64,000 nt of DNA from Octopus vulgaris. Taxonomy: Eukaryota. Below, piece by piece: positions 17,095-51,510 of this stretch. Position 1 is the first letter of the stretch, and each line of letters begins with the position of its first letter. Under the pieces are notes generated by a model. It saw only the letters and a program-made list of their open reading frames with translations. It did no database searches and had not been told where the DNA came from. The DNA lies in the NCBI GenBank assembly GCA_951406725.2, contig OX597828.1, positions 40,858,001 to 40,922,000 on the forward strand, given 5' to 3'. A program made the position numbers and the translations under genes.

Positions 17095-17765
17095 TCACCT
17101 TGATCACCTTGACCGAACAGTCCATCAGGCATCCATTTGACACCGCTGGTCACAGCACACTGTCCACTCCTCTCTGGATCGCGCCTTTCTCATCCACATG
17201 ATCCCAATCGTCCTCCTGAAATTGCAACTCCACCGTCGTGGAGGTCTTCTGGGTGGTCTTTTCCGCTCACGCGGGTACCACTCTACAACTGCGTGCATCC
17301 ACCAATTATCGGTGAGCCGGGCGACGTGTCCAGCTCATCTATACTTGCTGTGTGTATACTCTGCGATGACATCTCTCACGCTGGACTTCTTTCTGATGAT
17401 CTTGCTACTTATGTGCTCTCTCAATGAGATACCAAGCATTGACCTTTCCATGGCTCTTTGAGCTGTTACCAGTCTTTGCTCTTCTCTCTTTGTGGTAGCC
17501 CATGTTTCACTACCATATAACATTGAAGGCAGAACTGCACTGTTAATGAGGTTGGTGCAGGTGGTCCTGTCCAACCTTCCCTTGAGCACATCCCTTATGC
17601 CATTGAACGCCTTCCATCCGGCCCTTACTCTCCGTGAGATCTCCTTTTCGATATCTCGGCACATATTTACTTCTTGTCCCAGGTAGACATATTCCCTCAC
17701 CTCCTCTATTTCATCACTGCCGATCACCATTCGACCTGTTGGTATGTTGTCTGACCGCATGAACT
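17095..17765 (-). pseudogene. 5'-truncated RTE-clade LINE (ORF2 C-terminus plus 3' UTR)
   Basis: EYVYLGQ...EISRRVRAGWKAF...MLYGSETWA...AQRAMERSMLG, in-frame stop, then AGHVAR...WYPRERKRPPRRP; tail (TCAAGGTGA)2. Confidence 0.9.
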
Positions 17766-17775
17766 TATATACATA

Positions 17776-17812
<37 letters not shown>

Positions 17813-17820
<8 letters not shown>

Positions 17821-18330
17821 AAGTTATTTTATTCCACATGGGTAGAAATATAGGAAAAAGCCTTAATCAGTTTCACAGTTTATACGGATTTTCAAACTGT
17901 TCAAATAGAAAGACGTGGCTTGTGTTGCAGCTGTCTTGCTCCTGAATAGTGTTTGAAGCTTGCCCTATTTTTATAGGGAGTTCATCGCTGAAATTATAAT
18001 ATATATTTTGAATAGGATTTGATTGGTAGAGGATAGTCACCACTGGTCTTAGAAATTTTTGTAGTTTCCTCGCTACGTCCGTCCGTTCCTGTGTTAGTGT
18101 CAAGTGACAGTGTTTGGCATTGTAAGTTAAGGCTGACTCGGTTGACTGAATGTGTCCAAACAATCAATGCTCCGAATGTTTTCTGTCAAGTGTTTGTAGT
18201 GAATGAACACATGATTAAGTTTATAACGTTTATACGTTTCCTGTTACGTCTGTGCGTTAGTGTTACGTGATGGTATATTTTGTGCTTAAAAAGAAGGCGA
18301 ACATGGTTTTCAACTTCTACTTTTCATATA
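17813..18330 (-). mobile_element. Unclassified insert between (TA)n tracts with a degenerate hammerhead-like fold near its end (17860-17914)
   Basis: Minus strand: GTCTTT-CTATTTGA-ACAGTTT(loop)AAACTGT-GAAAC-TGATT-AAGGC; the catalytic core deviates from CUGANGA. Confidence 0.35.
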
Positions 18331-22485: not shown

Positions 22486-23783
22486 AATAATAATAATATC
22501 ATTGGCACTTATCAAATACGAATTTGGCCATTGTCACTCTATAACTTCTTCCTATTATTAATGTGTGTGTGTGTGTGTGTGTATCTCATTGTTTTCTCAA
22601 TGGACCCGGAAGTTGTTGCTCACGAACAGCAACAGTAATTTTCTTCAGCTGAATACATATCATTGATTGGTTAAAATTACCCAAATACGACAACTTTAAC
22701 ATGAAATAATTTCTAAAATACAAAATTTTATCAAAAACATTAAGAGTAAACTCTGTTCTATGTGACACATTCTACCAGTACCCGAAGTTTCAAAGTGTTC
22801 AATTAAAAAAAAAATCAATTAAAAAATCTGGCCGTCAAATTGAATAGATCCCATGCTTGTCATCATCATCTACAACATTGACATCATCAGTCATCCCCAT
22901 CATGCATCCAGTTTCGATGCTAGTATATATTTCTTTACTGCCCACAAGGGGTTAAACATAGAGGGGACAAACAAGGACTGACAAAGGGATTAAGTTGATT
23001 ACATCGACCCCAGTGCGTAACTGGTACTTTATTTATCGACCCTGAAAGGATGAAAGGCAAAGTCGACCTCGGCGGAGTTGGAAGGATCATCTTGCTGTGA
23101 GTCAGTGCTTAGACAGAGTTATTGCCCTTCCTTTATGGACCAGGCATCACATCTTTCTTACACATTCCCTTTTTGGCATGGTTTCTATAGCTTGATGCTC
23201 TTCCTAACATCAACCACTTTACCGAGTGTAGTGAAAGCATTTTACCTTGGCACCAACACCAAAGAGGTTGTCATTTCTTCAAGTATAGAAAATTCTCCTG
23301 ACCCTACTTTGTCTCTGTTTGTCAATTTACAGGCTACTGAGTGTATAGTCTTTAAAAAAAATGGTTGGGCAGGAAATATTGGATAATGTAATCTGAAAAG
23401 ACTGGATTGTCATGGCTAGAATACCTTTTGGCCTAGGGTTAATCAACAACTGGTTCTCATATTGTGTTGAAAATTCTGGTAGACTTTAGAATAGAGAGGG
23501 GATAAAGCTGCCATATTTTCCAGCATACAAGTTGAATTTTTCAGACCAAAATTTACAGTGAAAGCGAAGGTCAACTTATATACTAATATGAATGTAGATG
23601 TAAAAAAATTCCATGTGAAATGTGGCAGGATTTGGAAAGATAGCGAAAGCACTGAATGTTTGCTGTATATGTTTACACTATATGCTTTGACAACTTCTAT
23701 GTCAGAAAATATGGTAAAGACACTGAAATCTCTAGGCTGATGCTGTAACCATTTCTGCCATCCACCCATCTCTCTTTCATATG

Positions 23784-23840
<57 letters not shown>

Positions 23841-23841
<1 letters not shown>

Positions 23842-24943
23842 CACCATAGGACTGCAAAAATATCTACTTCAGAAGGAAGGAAAACTGATCCAGATAGCGG
23901 CAAAACACGAGCAAAACAAAAAACTGTTCTCAGTATTTAAGGAAGCTGACAAATACAAACAAGAAATCATACCACCTAATAAACACGAAGAAGAAGAAGA
24001 AGATGAAGAAACAACAAAAGCTATAAAACAAATGAAATCCAAACTAAAAATAGAACAGCAACGAACCATGATAAAACGATGGCAAGAAAAGCCCCTTCAT
24101 GGTAAATACTGGACTAAACTAAACGCAAAAGAAATAGACAAAGAAAAATCCCAGCAATGGTTGAGAAGCTCAGGACTCAAAGCAGAAACAGAGGGATTTT
24201 TAATTGCAGCACAAGACCAAAGCCTCCCCACCAGAAATTACCAAAAACATGTAATGAAAAGAAATATTACAAGTAACTGCAGAATATGTGGAGATGGACA
24301 AGAAACAATAAATCATATTATCTCTAGCTGCCCAGTCTTGGCTAAGAAGGAATATATTCACAGACATGACAGAGTTGGAACCTACATACATTGGAAGCTA
24401 TGCCAACATTATGGAATAACAACAGAAAAAAGATGGTATAGGCACACACCAGAAAAGGTCACAGAAAACGAGAAAACAACCATACTCTGGGATATGCCGA
24501 TACACACAGATAGAGAAATTAAGGCCAACAGACCAGATATAGTTGTCAGAGATCATGAAGAAAAAAATGCTTTCTAATTGATGTATCAATACCGGCTGAT
24601 GACAACGTGTCTCTAAAAGAAATGGAGAAACTCTCAAAATACAAAGACCTGGAAATAGAGGTAACTAGAATGTGGAATCTGAAAACAGAAACAATTCCTA
24701 TCATAGTAGGTGCATTAGGCATGATAAAAAAATATTCAGACAAATACATAACAAAAACACCAGGACTTACAAACACATATAACATACAGAAAATTGCACT
24801 ACTAGGCACTGCACACATCCTACGCAGAACACTTTCCATACAATAACCATCAGAGCATCACAACAAATCACAGCACGTACCCAAGGCACACAGAGCTGCG
24901 CTCGGTAGTGAAGTGAAAGCACGCTATAAAAATAAAACTACTG
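23841..24943 (+). mobile_element. 5'-truncated Dong/R4-clade RLE non-LTR retrotransposon inserted in (AAT)n
   Basis: WQEKPLHG, ETEGFLIAAQDQSL, CCHC knuckle CRICGDGQETINHIISSC, RHD, RLE motif RPDIVV..IDVSIP..EKLSKY, PIIVGALG; frameshift in the A-run at ~24565; (AAT)n on both flanks. Confidence 0.92.
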
Positions 24944-29577: not shown

Positions 29578-31146
29578 TCATGTGGTGTAGTGAGGAGAAG
29601 AGGGGGAGGGGGAGAAGAGGGGAGGGGGAGAAGAGGGGGAGAGAAGGGGAGGGGAAGAAGAGGGGGAGGAGAAGGGGGGAGAGGAGAGGATGGGGGAGAA
29701 GGAAGGGGATGAGGGGGATGAAGGAGGAAAGAGGGAGAGGGGGAGAGAGAAGGGGAGAGAGGGAGTGAGGGAGCAGAGGGAAGGGGAAGAGGGAGGGAGA
29801 AAGAGGGAAGAAGGGAAGGGGAGTAGGGGTGAAAGGATGAAGGACTGAAGAAGTAGGGGTCGGGGAGAAAGGATAGGTGAGGAGGGGGAGAGGGGGTTAG
29901 ATGAGGAGGGGGGAGAGTTGAGACCAAATGGCGTATAAGAGCGAAGAGAGAAGATTAATTCCTGTTCACGGCGCAAACGGGAATCCGGATGGCCTCTGTG
30001 TAAGGACAAACCGAACACAGATAGGTGTTGCAAGGAGTGACCGGTGGAGCGGAAATGGCGTGAGACCGGTGTGTCGTTCGTAAGGTGGATGTCACGAAGG
30101 TGTTCCGCGAACCGGTCAGCCAAGCGGCGTCCCGTTTGTCCGATGTACAAGGAATTGCAGAGAGAGCAAGAGATGCAATAGATAATATTGCTGGAGGTGC
30201 AGGTGAAGGAGTGGATGATGGGATAGGGTCGATGGTGGGTGCTAGTGAGGCGGGTGGTGTTGGAGAGGTAAGGGCAAGTGCGGCAACGTGGGCGGGAGCA
30301 GGGGAACGAGCCGGGTTGGGAGGTAGGGTCAGGGAAGGAGCTATGGACCAAAAGGTCTCGAAGGTTGTGGGCTCGTTTGAAAGAGGGGAGGGGTCGGTTA
30401 GGGAAGAGGTGTGAAGTGGACGGGTCGGACTGGAGATGACGGAAAGCTCGAAGAATGGTGCGTTGGAGACGTAGGGTCGTGGGGTGGTAAGTGAGGGGAA
30501 AAGGGAGGCGGGAGACTACAGGGCGGGTTCGGGGAGAGAGAGCAGATACACGGTCCACGGACCGTGCTCTGGCAAGGGCGGTGTGGATAGTGGTGAGGGG
30601 GTATCCACGTAGGGTGAAGTGGTGAGCCATACGTTGAGACTGAGTCTCAAAGTCATGGTCGTCACTACAGAGCCTACGTAGACGGAGGAATTGGGAATAG
30701 GGGATGGAAAGCTTGGTGTGTTCTGGGTGGGAGGAAGAGAAGTTGAGGTATGAGTGTGAGTCTGTCTGTTTGTAGTGAATGGAGGTGGTAAGAGTGGAGT
30801 GAAGAATGCTAACCGAAATATCGAGGAAGGAGACAGAGGTGTTGGAGATAGTGGAAGTGAAGTGGAGGGCTGGATGGAAAGATTGGACGAAAGAGAGGAA
30901 GGAATCTAGATGTTCGCGGGAGAGTGAGGTGGCACCGATAATGTCGTCAATGTAACGACCATATAGTTCAGGAGTGGGACCAGTGAAATTAGAGAATATT
31001 TGGGCCTCAACATAGCCAACGAACAGGTTCGCATAGTTGGGGCCCATTCGCGTTCCCATGGCCACTCCCGAGACCTGATGGTAGAACTCGCCCGCGAACG
31101 AGAAGCAGTTCAGAGTAAGGACAAGTTCGGCCAGACGAATGAGTGT
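29578..31146 (-). CDS. Penelope-like RT C-terminal half, Cys-rich linker and GIY-YIG endonuclease (partial; no genuine start codon)
   Basis: QVSGVAMGTRMGPNYANLF, YGRYIDD, SFLD, HYKQTDSHSYL, CSRPRCRTC linker, IIYCISCSLCNSLYIGQT..RFAEH; real similarity ends at FGLN (~29920), the rest is read-through of a low-complexity tract. Confidence 0.9.
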   Translation of the reverse strand, partial: TLIRLAELVLTLNCFSFAGEFYHQVSGVAMGTRMGPNYANLFVGYVEAQIFSNFTGPTPELYGRYIDDIIGATSLSREHLDSFLSFVQSFHPALHFTSTISNTSVSFLDISVSILHSTLTTSIHYKQTDSHSYLNFSSSHPEHTKLSIPYSQFLRLRRLCSDDHDFETQSQRMAHHFTLRGYPLTTIHTALARARSVDRVSALSPRTRPVVSRLPFPLTYHPTTLRLQRTILRAFRHLQSDPSTSHLFPNRPLPSFKRAHNLRDLLVHSSFPDPTSQPGSFPCSRPRCRTCPYLSNTTRLTSTHHRPYPIIHSFTCTSSNIIYCISCSLCNSLYIGQTGRRLADRFAEHLRDIHLTNDTPVSRHFRSTGHSLQHLSVFGLSLHRGHPDSRLRREQELIFSLRSYTPFGLNSPPSSSNPLSPSSPILSPRPLLLQSFILSPLLPFPSSLFLPPSSPSLCSLTPSLPFSLPLSLFPPSSPSSPSFSPILSSPPFSSPSSSPPLLSPSSPPPLFSPSPSSPHYTT

Positions 31147-31204
31147 AGATAGATAGATAGATAGATAAATAAACAAATATAAAGTTGCATATGTATGTAT
31201 GTAT

Positions 31205-31246
<42 letters not shown>

Positions 31247-31323
31247 ACATACATACATATATATATATATATATGTATGTATACATACATACATATACAA
31301 CTTTGTATTTGTCTTTTTATCTA

Positions 31324-32911: not shown

Positions 32912-33152
32912 TCATCATCATCATCGTTTAACGTCCATTTTCCGCGCTAGCATGGGTTGGACGGTTTGACCGGGGTCTGGGAAGCCGGGGTCTGGGAAGC
33001 CGGGGGCTGCACCAGGCTCCAGTCTGATCTGGCAGAGTTTCTACAGCTGGATGCCCTTCCTAACGCCAACCACTCCGCGAGTGTAGTGGGTGCTTTTTAC
33101 GTGCCACCTGCACAGGTGCCCGGGGGGGTCCGGCATCGGTCACGATCGGTTG
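32912..33152 (-). mobile_element. Repeat family B, reverse copy, joined directly to Penelope copy 2
   Basis: (ATC)n GTTTAACGTCC...GGATGCCCTTCCTAACGCC; internal 16-bp duplication CCGGGGTCTGGGAAGC. Confidence 0.8.
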
Positions 33153-35348
33153 GAGCTTGTCCTTACTCTAAAAGCTTCTCGTTCGCGGGCGAGTTCTACC
33201 ATCAGGTCTCGGGAGTGGCCATGGGAATGCGAATGGGCCCCAACTATGCGAACCTGTTCGTTGGCTATGTTGAGGCCCAAATATTCTCTAATTTCACTGG
33301 TCCCACTCCTGAACTATATGGTCATTACATTGACGACATTATCGGTGCCACCTCACTCTCCCATGAACATCTAGATTCCTTCCTCTCTTTCGTCCAATCT
33401 TTCCATCCAGCCCTCCACTTCACTTCCACTATCTCCAACACCTCTGTCTCCTTCCTCGACATTTCGGTTAGCATTCTTCACTCCACTCTTACCACCTCCA
33501 TTCACTACAAACACACAGACTCACACTCATACCTCAACTTCTCTTCCTCCCACCCAGAACACACCAAGCTTTCCATCCCCTATTCCCAATTCCTCCGTCT
33601 ACGTAGGCTCTGTAGTGACGACCATGACTTTGAGACTCAGTCTCAACGTATGGCTCACCACTTCACCCTACGTGGATACCCCCTCACCACTATCCACACC
33701 GCCCTTGCCAGATACACGTAGACCGTGTATCTGCTCTCTCTCCCCGAACCCGCCCTGTAGTCTCCCGCCTCCCTTTTCCCCACACTTACCACCCCACGAC
33801 CCTACGTCTCCAACGCATCATTCTTCGAGCTTTCCGTCATCTCCAGTCCGACCCGTCCACTTCACACCTCTTCCCTAACTGACCCCTCCCCTCTTTCAAA
33901 CGAGCCCACAACCTTCGAGACCTTTTGGTCCATAGCTCCTTCCCTGACCCTACCTCCCAACCCGGCTCGTTCCCCTGCTCCCGCCCACGTTGCCGCACTT
34001 GCCCTTACCTCTCCAACACCACCCTCCTCACTAGCACCCACCATCGACCCTATCCCATCATCCACTCCTTCACCTGCACCTCCAGCAATATTATCTATTG
34101 CGTCTCTTGCTCTCTCTGCCATTCCTTGTACATCGGACAAACGGGACACCGCTTGGCTGACCGGTTCGCGGAACACCTTCGTGACATCCACCTTGCAAAC
34201 GACACACCGGTCTCACACCATTTCCGCTCCACCGGTCACTCCCTTGCAACACCTATCTGTGTTCGGTTTGTCCTTACACAGAGGCCATCCGGATTCCCGT
34301 TTGCGCCGTGAACAGGAATTAATCTTCTCTCTTCGCTCTTATACGCCATTTGGTCTCAACTTTCCCCCCCCCCTCATCTAACCCCCTCTCCCCCTCCTCA
34401 CCTATCCTTCCCCCCGACCCCTACTTCTTCAGTCCTTCATCCTTTCACCCCTACTCCCCTTCCCTTCTTCCCTCTTTCTCCCTCCCTCCTTCCCTCTTCC
34501 CCTTCCCTCTGCTCCCTCACTCCCCTTCTCTCTCCCCCTCTCCCTCTTTCCTCCTTCCTTCTCCCCCTCCTCTCCTCCCCTCCCCGCCCCCTCCTCTCCT
34601 CTTCCCCCCTCTCCTCCCCCTCTCCTCCTCTCTCCACACTACACCACACGACTTTACACATCACATCATATATGATGTGCCATACTAATACATACACCAA
34701 CTAATACATACTAATACGTACTAATACATACTAATACATACTAATACATACACCAACCCTATACATACACACGTCCAGACCTCTCATACGCACTTATACT
34801 CTCTCATACACACACACACACACTTATACATACTAATACGTACTAATACATACTAATACGTACTACTAATACATACTAATACATACACCAACCCCATACA
34901 TACGCACGTCCAGACCTATCATACGCACTAATACTCTCTCATACACACACACACACACACACACACACCCTTATACATACTAATACATACTAATACATAC
35001 ACCAACCCCTTACATACACACGTCCAGACCTCTCCTACGCACTAATAGCTGGTCATTCAACCCTATTATCAACCCTATTATCTCCCCTTATTTTGCTCTC
35101 GCGTCTCATGTTTGATCTTTGACCTCTGGCCAAAATCAGATCGCCATGTTGATTCGTTAGTTACTGCACGCATTTTTTTCTCTCCTTCTTTCTGTGTTTT
35201 TTTCTCTCTGTGTATCTTTCTGTTGAAGAGCGTAGGCTCGAAACGTTAAAGACTTGTTTTATTTATATTTCCTGAGCGCCATACTAATACAATTGTTTGT
35301 ATGTTTCCCGCCTGCCTTCGTCTTTTGTCTATTTTCATAAAGCTTCCC

Positions 35349-49400: not shown

Positions 49401-50006
49401 TTAAATCTACCTGATCACCTGCCTGCTTCCTTCTCTGTTCCCTCGTCTTTTGTTGCCTCCTCCTCTGACACCTCCCCCCTCCACACCTCCTCTTCATCAT
49501 CACCATCATCATCGTTGGTGTTGGTTCTGTTCTCACTTGCCATAAACATCATCATCACCATCATTGTCATCATCCTCTTAATCATAAGCATTGTTATCAT
49601 TACAGCATCATCATCATCATCTTCATCATTGTTATTGATACTATTCTCCTTTATCATTATAAACATCATCTTAATCATCATCACTATTACCATCCTCAAT
49701 TATTGATTCAAAAGAAACCGAAATAATTCCTGCTGTCAGTGTTTTAAAGACACATCTATGGCTGCTGTGTGTGTGTCATGTTGTGTTTATAAAGTCTGGA
49801 ACTCAGAAACTTATATTTGGCAGAGATGCTAAGTTTCCGTAAACTAATTGAATAAAAGAGACACAATTGGTGCTGTTCTCATTACTCAAATGTTAGAAAT
49901 TGAAGACTTAGTGAAGCTGTATGTGTGTGTGTATGCATGCATGTATATATTGTTGTATGTATATATGCAGCACACACGCATATGAGTGTGCGTATGTATA
50001 TATATA

Positions 50007-50089
<83 letters not shown>

Positions 50090-50109
50090 GATTATAATTA
50101 TATATATAT

Positions 50110-50409
50110 GTGGAGGCGCAATGGCCCAGTGGTCAGGGTAGCGGACTCGTGGTCGTAGGATCATGGTTTCGATTCCCAGACCGGGCGTTGTGAGTGTTTA
50201 TTGAGCGAAAACACTAAAGCTCCACAAGGCTCCGGCAGGGGGTGGTGGCGATCCCTGCTGCACCCTTTCGCCACAGCTTTCTCTCACTCTTTCTTGTGTT
50301 GGCCTGCTCACTTAGCCAGCGGGGTGGCGTCATTTGAAGGATAAAAACAATGCGAAGCGCATTGTGGCCATCGACGTATAGCAACAGCTGATAGCCTGGT
50401 CGGTCACGG
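50110..50409 (+). mobile_element. SINE with family F tRNA head and a different RTE-derived tail
   Basis: Same head as 9459-9843; tail GCGCATTGTGGCCATCGACGT...CTGATAGCCTGGTCGGTCAC resembles the RTE 3' end at 17095-17160. Confidence 0.8.
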
Positions 50410-50921
50410 TACGAAATTTTTTGCCACCCTATATTGATTAATTATGAATTTTCTGGTTAATTCCGTAATGGAATCGGCGGCTTATATTTGCTGCCGATAA
50501 ATTTGGCGCGAGTGCGATGATTTGAAAATTTTAGGTCAGATATTGCCGAGGCAGGGATAGTGGTGCCTCGTGATAATATCTGCTCGGATCTGGCTGTTCT
50601 TACTGAAGAATCTATCGGCCTATGGAAGATTGGCTTGATTTAATTTAATCAGGTTAGTTTACCATTAAACAATAGATGAAATGGTGCATCGTATAAGAAA
50701 TTACAGGGTAAATGTTTTTTAATTTTCTCCTGGTTTGCGGAATTAATGTTATTTTGCGGTTGAAGCTTTGGCTGTTATTTCTAGTGGGTGAATGGCCTAT
50801 TATGGCCATTCCTTGATTGTGATGTTGAACTTATAAATGGTCTATGACTATTTAATTTTTCCCACTAGCCGCTGGTGGCAAATAAATTCTACGAAATTTT
50901 TGCCACCCTATATTGATTAAT
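50410..50921 (+). mobile_element. 480-nt highly structured non-coding hammerhead element with ~32-bp terminal direct repeat (retrozyme-like or Penelope pseudo-LTR-like)
   Basis: TACGAAATTTTT(T)GCCACCCTATATTGATTAAT at 50410 and 50890; internal HHR; multiple G-U-containing stems; followed by (TA)n. Confidence 0.75.
50597..50699 (+). ncRNA. Type I hammerhead ribozyme with long helix II
   Basis: Helix I TTCTTA/TAAGAA; core CTGAAGA; helix II ATCTAT...ATAGAT; GAAA; helix III ATGG-TGCA-TCGT; GUA triplet, predicted cut after 50693. Confidence 0.85.
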
Positions 50922-50986
<65 letters not shown>

Positions 50987-51030
50987 CATATATACATCTA
51001 CATACACACACACACACACACATATATATA

Positions 51031-51510
51031 CAGGGTGCGATGGGTAAATTGTCACTGTTTTATATTTTTATATATGTTCATTGTTTGTTTTGGATTTTGT
51101 TGACTCATTATCTGTGAGAAAAACAGCACCATGATGCAATTCACTCTGCCAGAAATTTTGGAAATGACATGTTGTACTGCATGGCATTCATGCCAGAAGC
51201 TCCAATATGAACATTTCAGAGTGTTTGGGTGTCAATCTGAGGACATGTACCGAGAGTGATAAAAATCAAACATCCAGTCAACATTACGGTGTTTGGAGTG
51301 ATCACAAGTGATGGCGACATTATGCCTCCATTCATCTTCCCACATGGCCTCAGCCTCAACTGAGAGGCCTACATCAAGTGCCTGGAAGGTAGTGCTGCCC
51401 TGGGTCAAGAGGGTGGCTGCTGGAAGATCATATGTCTGGTAATAGGACTCTGCATCATGTCAGACAATTTTTGTGACCACATCAGCCCTAACAACTGGCC
51501 ACTAACTCCT
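51031..51510 (+). pseudogene. Degenerate Tc1/mariner (maT/DD37D-like) transposon fragment
   Basis: TA|CAGGGTG left end; KHPVNITVFGVITSDGDIMPPFIFPHGL...VLPWVKRVAAGRSYVW..DSA...NWP; stops and deletions. Confidence 0.75.

Follow-up and report, generated by a model that had tools for sequence, protein, structure and literature searches.

A tandem hammerhead retrozyme family of Octopus vulgaris with insertion ends of Penelope type

The element at 50410-50921 of the 64-kb stretch of Octopus vulgaris DNA analyzed here (the window) is, with a probability of roughly 0.85, a 5'-truncated copy of a non-coding, ~484-nt tandem retrozyme family, likely copied in trans into (TA)n by the reverse transcriptase (RT) and GIY-YIG endonuclease of a Penelope-like element (PLE). 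Judged by its sequence, it belongs to a new family within the known class of non-LTR retrozymes; it has likewise the characters of a non-autonomous PLE derivative and does not have those of a solo PLE pseudo-LTR (pLTR). The window copy is a degraded member, and the interest lies in the mechanistic record preserved across copies. What is new here is evidence at the level of insertions: twin ends of PLE type, an almost strict rule pairing one end (A) with the other (B), and breakpoints at the predicted ribozyme cut.

The window copy and its family

The preliminary description started from a ~32-bp direct repeat 480 nt apart. This repeat is present at 50410-50442 and 50890-50921, identical except for one T within a T run, and the parts of the element are listed in Table 1. 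Terminal redundancy as a defining trait had to be given up: of two fixed points, the 3' end occupies one, and the 5' end arose by truncation at random, which in this copy fell 32 nt beyond a full unit. An LTR-like redundancy was likewise rejected as a family trait, since arm lengths range from 37 to 4,478 nt and the overlap is one length among many.

Table 1. Features of the retrozyme copy and its flanks (positions in the window)
Feature	Position	Strand	Remark
Retrozyme-family insertion arm	50410..50921	+	1.07 units, 5'-truncated, type A 3' end
Repeat copy 1 (32-33 bp)	50410..50442	+	End piece of preceding unit; 5' truncation point random
Long-range helix	50457-468/50735-746 (50457..50746)	+	Encloses hairpins 50473-498 and 50537-582 and the ribozyme
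Type I hammerhead	50597..50699	+	Motif scan, family alignment
Hammerhead stem I	50597-602/50694-699	+	6 bp
Hammerhead core	50603-609	+	CUGAAGA at 50603
Hammerhead stem II	50610-615/50672-677	+	6 bp; long extension 50622-665
Hammerhead GAAA	50678-681	+
Stem III	50682..50691	+	Ten bases, self-complementary; predicted dimer pairing
GUA triplet and cut site	50691..50694	+	Triplet 50691-50693; predicted cut between 50693 and 50694
Hairpin, then fixed 3' end B	50790..50823	+	Hairpin 50790-811; end internal in window copy
End B	50823	+	Second putative RT initiation site, 130 nt 3' of cut
Tail between ends B and A	50824..50921	+	~100 nt; hairpins 50834-854 and 50874-907; also 3' arm (50861-868) of helix starting at 50781-788
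Repeat copy 2	50890..50921	+	Terminates at fixed 3' end A; putative RT initiation site, 232 nt 3' of cut
(TA)n target array at 3' end	50925..50975		Such a flank shared by nearly all family copies
tRNA-derived SINE	50110..50409	+	Fused straight onto element 5' end; outside the retrozyme family

The window copy carries private letters. At N7 it reads A (1 of 38 close units), and at position 15.2 (50682) it has U where the family has C (1 of the 38 close units, 1 of 147 units); with this U, the computed energy of the dimer duplex is -13.9, as opposed to -17.5. With one ribozyme and a weakened stem III, the copy is probably inactive and dead, and it could not release a monomer by itself. In our best explanation, it is a one-armed product that crossed the ribozyme site once and was then joined to the SINE.

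The SINE has an A-box-like site near 50122 and a B-box-like site near 50166, and it is present without its last 7-11 nt and TA run; ARAGORN found no tRNA in 49500-51500. The junction could have arisen because target DNA was deleted or because copying switched templates, passing from retrozyme RNA to SINE RNA, the latter being considered because TA arrays flank the SINE and the element as a pair. Elsewhere in the window, frame fragments of non-LTR retrotransposons lie at 23741-24577 (+), with a zf-RVT match, and at 17335-17823 (-).

A genome search (2.8 Gb, 227 contigs) returned 1,982 candidates, of which the 40 scored gave 140 matches in dispersed tandem arrays; full-length matches are 94-98% identical. 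Exact patterns identified at least 767 ribozyme cores, at least 667 places with the A end followed by (TA)n and at least 507 with the B end followed by (TA)n, each control giving 0. Close units measure 480-486 nt (38 units), the typical unit being ~484 nt and the overall range 474-491 nt. The longest stop-free frame of a natural dimer is 60 aa, and its GC content is 37%. In the arrays, which reach nine units, each unit joins the next head to tail and no other sequence intervenes. The idea of a retrozyme-like family was borne out. No sampled copy is attached to an RT frame, and the longer copies run into another unit, contrary to what an ordinary pLTR joined to an RT ORF would give.

Older subfamilies are 88-94% and ~85% identical to the unit; those at ~85% and ~72% are ORF-less tandems too. 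A sister family with a 474-nt unit, ~70-75% identical over its whole length, surfaced through a stem III pattern search aimed at the PLE partner (283 pattern matches versus 6 in the control). It retains the whole fold and both 3' ends, and its stem III palindrome is perfect. Assembled contigs from four public runs with four organism labels hold the unit and show its presence only, two of these runs being guessed to be RNA; one contig shows the B end followed by TA, and the contigs of run X1 have C at 50607 and 50682, unlike the window copy. In the nine-unit array (G000 C8:30046872-30051349; L029, L030), variant patterns recur with a four-unit period, which may stem from DNA duplication, from copying of a tetrameric circle or from an assembly artefact. 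From this higher-order repeat, DNA-level expansion may be an additional process in arrays.

Conservation of the hammerhead and the fold

A motif scan of both strands found a single type I hammerhead in the window, the complete one with a GUA site that the preliminary description had recognized. The Rfam hammerhead models, proposed there as a check, gave no match either at the gathering score or at E<=10, probably because the long stem II defeats the covariance model. The family is invisible to Rfam, and similar families may be missed.

CUGA.GA and the stem I 5' arm are invariant across 113 pieces, in which every base occurs at N7 (A 5, C 71, T 32, G 5) and H17 is A or C. The ribozyme core is intact in 143 of 147 units, in which stem I occurs in several compensated forms and stem III is self-complementary in all but one (146/147). 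Among 30 chosen sequences, 96.1% of the ribozyme-stem cells are paired as opposed to 29-43% in slid controls, and 35 cells change on both sides, a count that relatedness among sequences inflates and that none of 500 shuffles reached. Within stem I, four of the seven pairs show changes in both partners. The total of six covarying pairs did not beat the shuffles (185 of 500 as good). Position 10.1-11.1 is mostly A-U instead of the usual G-C. As a hairpin, stem III is marginal at -0.1 kcal/mol, compared with -17.5 for the dimer duplex; a dimer design is usual for animal type I hammerheads according to the accessible text of PMC4209133. The invariant core together with covarying stems I-III indicates that the ribozyme is under selection. 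Another type I hammerhead, unrelated in sequence and with a six-base palindromic stem III, was seen in locus L041 near 2482 (+).

All hairpin arms listed in the preliminary description lie where it placed them. The + strand of 50410-50921 folds at -154.3 kcal/mol (z -5.4, 0 of 100 shuffles as good) and at z -5.3 in circular mode, while the minus strand reaches z -5.2 (linear) and -6.1 (circular) against its own shuffles. Circular folds of six natural units range from z -5.0 to -7.1 for the + strand and from -2.5 to -7.0 for the minus strand. Folding is thus far beyond chance, yet the folding energy does not discriminate the strand: circular folding of the + strand exceeded the shuffles as predicted, but the choice of strand could not be based on it.

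The ten helices proposed from the window copy are paired in 94.1% of cells across 17 units, with 8 covarying pairs and 28 varying on one side. The long helix 50457-468/50735-746 is paired in 90% of cells, the hairpin 50473-498 in 99% and the inner stem of 50537-582, the weakest helix, in 81%. For pairs changing on both sides in these ten helices, 162 of 500 shuffles were as good, and chance was not beaten. Paired cells and the intact cores uphold the RNA-level conservation that had been suggested. The accompanying argument from G-U pairs stood in part. In a strand-symmetric variant test on pairs common to the folds of both strands, G-U and A-C variants numbered 26:25, 14:13, 11:6 and 9:4 as the carrier threshold was raised, none of which was significant (p=0.33 for 11 versus 6), whereas the variation in the stem II extension is 99% paired, mostly via G-U.

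Insertion ends, arms and breakpoints

Copies sit inside (TA)n and have 3' ends at A (50921-25) or B (50823), ~100 nt apart, and ragged 5' ends. We sorted 94 insertion clusters, four of them cut by locus edges. Among the 90 complete insertions, 55 are inverted A+B, one is B+B, none is A+A, six are inverted with one odd end, 26 are one-armed (17 single A, 9 single B) and two consist of other pieces. Inverted insertions with standard ends are A+B in 55 of 56 cases, in which the partner end alone is informative, as the loci were chosen by one end. A second test, which partly overlaps the first in loci, used all exact ends listed on contigs C1 and C2 (92 A, 84 B); all 26 outward-facing pairs are A+B (p=1.4e-8). 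In the sister family, six of seven inverted loci are A+B and one is A+A. An older Hydra-type PLE in the same genome pairs a long with a short end in 8 of 9 inverted loci.

Fixed 3' ends, ragged 5' ends, inverted 5'-truncated partners and the (TA)n target are signatures of PLE insertion, and the ~100-nt segment from B to A corresponds to the PLE tail. A candidate signal shared by both ends, a hairpin followed by UUGAUU, holds in the young family and was rejected, as the sister family alters it before B; the hairpins and positions, not UUGAUU, are retained as common features before the A and B ends. A further hammerhead family (L165:3760-4110; 2,744 candidates) is not tandem and has no ORF in two longer loci; its inverted partners, in 8 of 8 cases listed, end ~110 nt short of the long end.

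With homopolymer-adjacent positions masked, the divergence between tandem units of one insertion is 0.62% of sites (147 pairs), and that between opposite arms is 0.57% (102 pairs). The nearest relative of an arm is its own partner arm in 35 of 45 insertions, and the two arms frequently cover one segment of the unit in common; therefore, reverse transcription either went over a single template twice or drew on two sister RNAs. Subsequent gene conversion may also have contributed to the arm identity.

The 5' breakpoints cluster at the ribozyme site. Among 145 arms of 30 nt or more with a standard 3' end, 31 stop at 50688-50719 compared with 11.3 expected under constant hazard (p=2e-7), an interval that ranks top of 56 sliding windows and was drawn after the cluster was seen. 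The excess is present in A arms alone (16 versus 5.3 expected) and in B arms alone (15 versus 6.0), and the next windows reach at most 1.5-fold. Stops are asymmetric about the cut, with 28 at 50694-50719 versus 6 at 50675-50693, and occur in 24 of 117 first passes, compared with 3 of 34 and 2 of 11 later passes. For 51 inverted insertions (the 55 minus four with unclear junctions), both arms stop at the site in 8, one in 5 and neither in 38 (p=6e-6). AT-rich filler is found in 6 of the 8 double-stop junctions; of all 51 junctions, 32 are overlapping or blunt. In the sister family (L247-L254), one one-armed copy has its 5' end near the cut site.

In the simplest reading, the cluster looks as if cDNA synthesis had run off a ribozyme-cut 5' end, suggesting that cut RNA can serve as template in vivo. 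About a fifth of the arms reaching the site stop there and 93 of 119 cross it; therefore, uncut multimers or ligated circles would be the commoner template, and the data do not separate these two.

From these observations we infer the following scheme. Arrays would be transcribed as multimers. Stem III, being palindromic, could bring neighboring ribozymes together in pairs that excise monomers, and ligation may turn some of these monomers into circles. At the target, a PLE enzyme acting as a dimer would nick the TA array on both strands and start reverse transcription at internal sites of the RNA: B for one strand, A for the other. The resulting cDNAs would extend inward until short overlaps or AT-rich filler join them. 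If the RNA is linear and cleaved, both cDNAs would end by run-off at the cut; if it is an uncut multimer or a circle, they would continue past the site, giving rise to arrays. We would put at slightly better than even odds the specific proposal that an asymmetric enzyme dimer uses two different fixed sites on a single RNA to prime the two target strands, and that ribozyme-cleaved monomers, besides circles or multimers, are real templates in vivo.

The most serious competitor, which we consider unlikely while granting it real weight, holds that the ribozyme is irrelevant to mobilization, the templates being uncut transcripts and the cluster the result of RT stalling at RNA structure. Most arms do cross the site, and PLE insertion in vitro was unaffected by ribozyme mutants (PMC11167929). 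The stops spread over ~25 nt 3' of the cut, where a hairpin (50705-50731) and stem I are located, so stalling may have contributed to the cluster, and arms copied from one shared template could be coupled by a strong stall as well. However, no comparable pile-up occurs at the stronger helices 50735-746, 50790-811 and 50874-907, and the excess of stops on the 3' side of the cut also argues against stalling, as do the joint stops of both arms, which are far above chance and mostly carry AT-rich filler. Moreover, the core is under purifying selection.

If the proposal of an asymmetric dimer and cleaved templates is true, retrozyme spread would be tied directly to the PLE machinery, tail asymmetry and inverted insertions would be explained, PLE-type hammerheads would gain a role, and a 484-nt RNA would be a minimal substrate for testing PLE integration.

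Relation to retrozymes and Penelope-like elements

According to the accessible text of PMC7229834 and bioRxiv 2026.07.22.740005, animal non-LTR retrozymes share with the octopus family a tandem arrangement of non-coding units, a single canonical type I hammerhead per unit, a GC content below 50%, the lack of LTRs, strong self-pairing and co-occurrence with PLEs. The octopus unit is longer than the ~170-400 nt given in the part of PMC7229834 at hand and lies inside the 51-972 bp given in that of the bioRxiv preprint. It differs from animal retrozymes, as far as these texts describe them, in its long branched stem II, its ten-base palindromic stem III and the absence of an Rfam match. Twin fixed 3' ends, A+B pairing and breakpoints at the cut are seen here and have no counterpart in the descriptions in the accessible text of the retrozyme papers. 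There, multimer cleavage and circular RNA are reported for mussel, coral and axolotl retrozymes (PMC7229834), so circles are demonstrated for published animal retrozymes, whereas for the family presented here they are putative. In the available portion of the preprint, one of nine predicted Xenopus retrozyme dimers cleaved in vitro, and animal retrozymes are argued to derive from PLEs on the basis of 35 genomes, none of them from a mollusc (bioRxiv 2026.07.22.740005). The giant squid paper, in the part accessible, counts 235 hammerhead loci without analysis (PMC6962438).

Among PLEs, the closest parallel is Poseidon PAc of Anolis, whose tail is delimited in vitro by a pair of initiation sites (PMC11167929). 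Shared with the octopus family are two internal RT start sites (putative in the latter) bounding the tail, an AT-rich target, extension on both strands, and tandem and inverted copies. By contrast, the tail is ~100-105 nt here versus 30-40 nt in Poseidon PAc, and there is no ORF here. The genomic ends pair A with B almost strictly, whereas the Poseidon PAc start sites act alike on both strands in vitro; and the octopus insertions bear signs of cut-RNA templates, whereas uncut RNA was dominant in Poseidon PAc in vitro, where insertion proceeded without ribozyme cleavage (PMC11167929). PLEs in general show partially tandem copies, inverted partners with 5' truncation, tails and TA targets (PMC8557442), and the Hydra clade also shares canonical hammerheads and (TA)n insertion (PMC8557442).

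The octopus genome contains a very young Neptune-like PLE family and at least three Hydra-type families, two of them with intact frames; these families are TA-targeted and carry ribozyme motifs. The Neptune-like PLE (26,013 candidates; top 101 matches 99-100% identical) has open frames of up to 1,214 aa with an RVT_1 match, and its 3' end contains a minimal hammerhead variant and terminates in (TA)n. The two young intact Hydra-type families (L171:1453-3633 and L201:1890-4040) encode 727 and 717 aa with a DKT motif, carry ribozyme-like motifs at TA targets and have no Pfam match; in the 717-aa family, the core is altered and the two ends lie ~65 nt from each other. The older Hydra-type family (L129-L170; 17,414 candidates) combines a branched-stem-II hammerhead with two 3' ends ~145 nt apart. 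Like the retrozyme, the Hydra-type DKT families of this genome have type I ribozymes with a palindromic stem III and two ends, ~65-145 nt apart.

Between the unit and the four PLE families sampled (Neptune-like and three Hydra-type), a single weak match (E 0.065) was the only sign of sequence homology. The unit sequence is absent from all three Hydra-type families examined; the partnership is guessed from the likeness of the ends. Long tails and a branched stem II would make Hydra-type enzymes a better guess than Neptune-like ones. The suggestion of mobilization by a Penelope RT/GIY-YIG enzyme is therefore supported by the PLE-type ends, the TA targets and the inverted insertions, but a partner sharing sequence did not emerge among the four families.

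That the unit is merely the pLTR of an autonomous PLE, the window copy being a solo pLTR left by 5' truncation, we regard as improbable. Such an origin would account for the PLE-type ends and target, autonomous PLEs with 3'-end hammerheads are abundant in the genome, and Xenopus retrozymes resemble pLTRs according to the accessible text of bioRxiv 2026.07.22.740005. It does not fit units that abut head to tail in arrays of up to nine. Moreover, where fragments of PLE proteins occur close to sampled copies, TA arrays lie between them and the unit, no sampled insertion runs into an RT/GIY-YIG frame, and the ORF-less tandem state of the ~85% and ~72% subfamilies implies long solo propagation. A satellite or other DNA-level repeat (unequal crossover, or a MITE-like hairpin element) whose folding reflects mere inverted repeats would suit the equal folding of both strands against shuffles and the four-unit higher-order repeat of one array, but it is scarcely tenable in view of the scatter of short arrays over many contigs, the conservation and covariation of the ribozyme on one strand and, above all, fixed 3' and ragged 5' ends, whose polarity largely refutes it.

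In a search of largely open-access literature, we found no paper on an octopus retrozyme or Penelope-hammerhead family, nor, in literature on PLE tails, inversion and truncation, any describing ends that pair strictly or breakpoints that coincide with the cut. The origin of tails and inverted insertions, the role of PLE hammerheads and the mobilizer of retrozymes are stated as open in the accessible text of PMC8557442, PMC11167929, PMC7229834 and bioRxiv 2026.07.22.740005, in which the published link between retrozymes and PLEs consists of co-occurrence and pLTR similarity. These questions become testable with a short RNA and young intact PLE frames from the same genome. Within the window itself, 29578-31320 (-) and 32951-34381 (+) form an inverted pair of 5'-truncated copies of the very young Neptune-like PLE.
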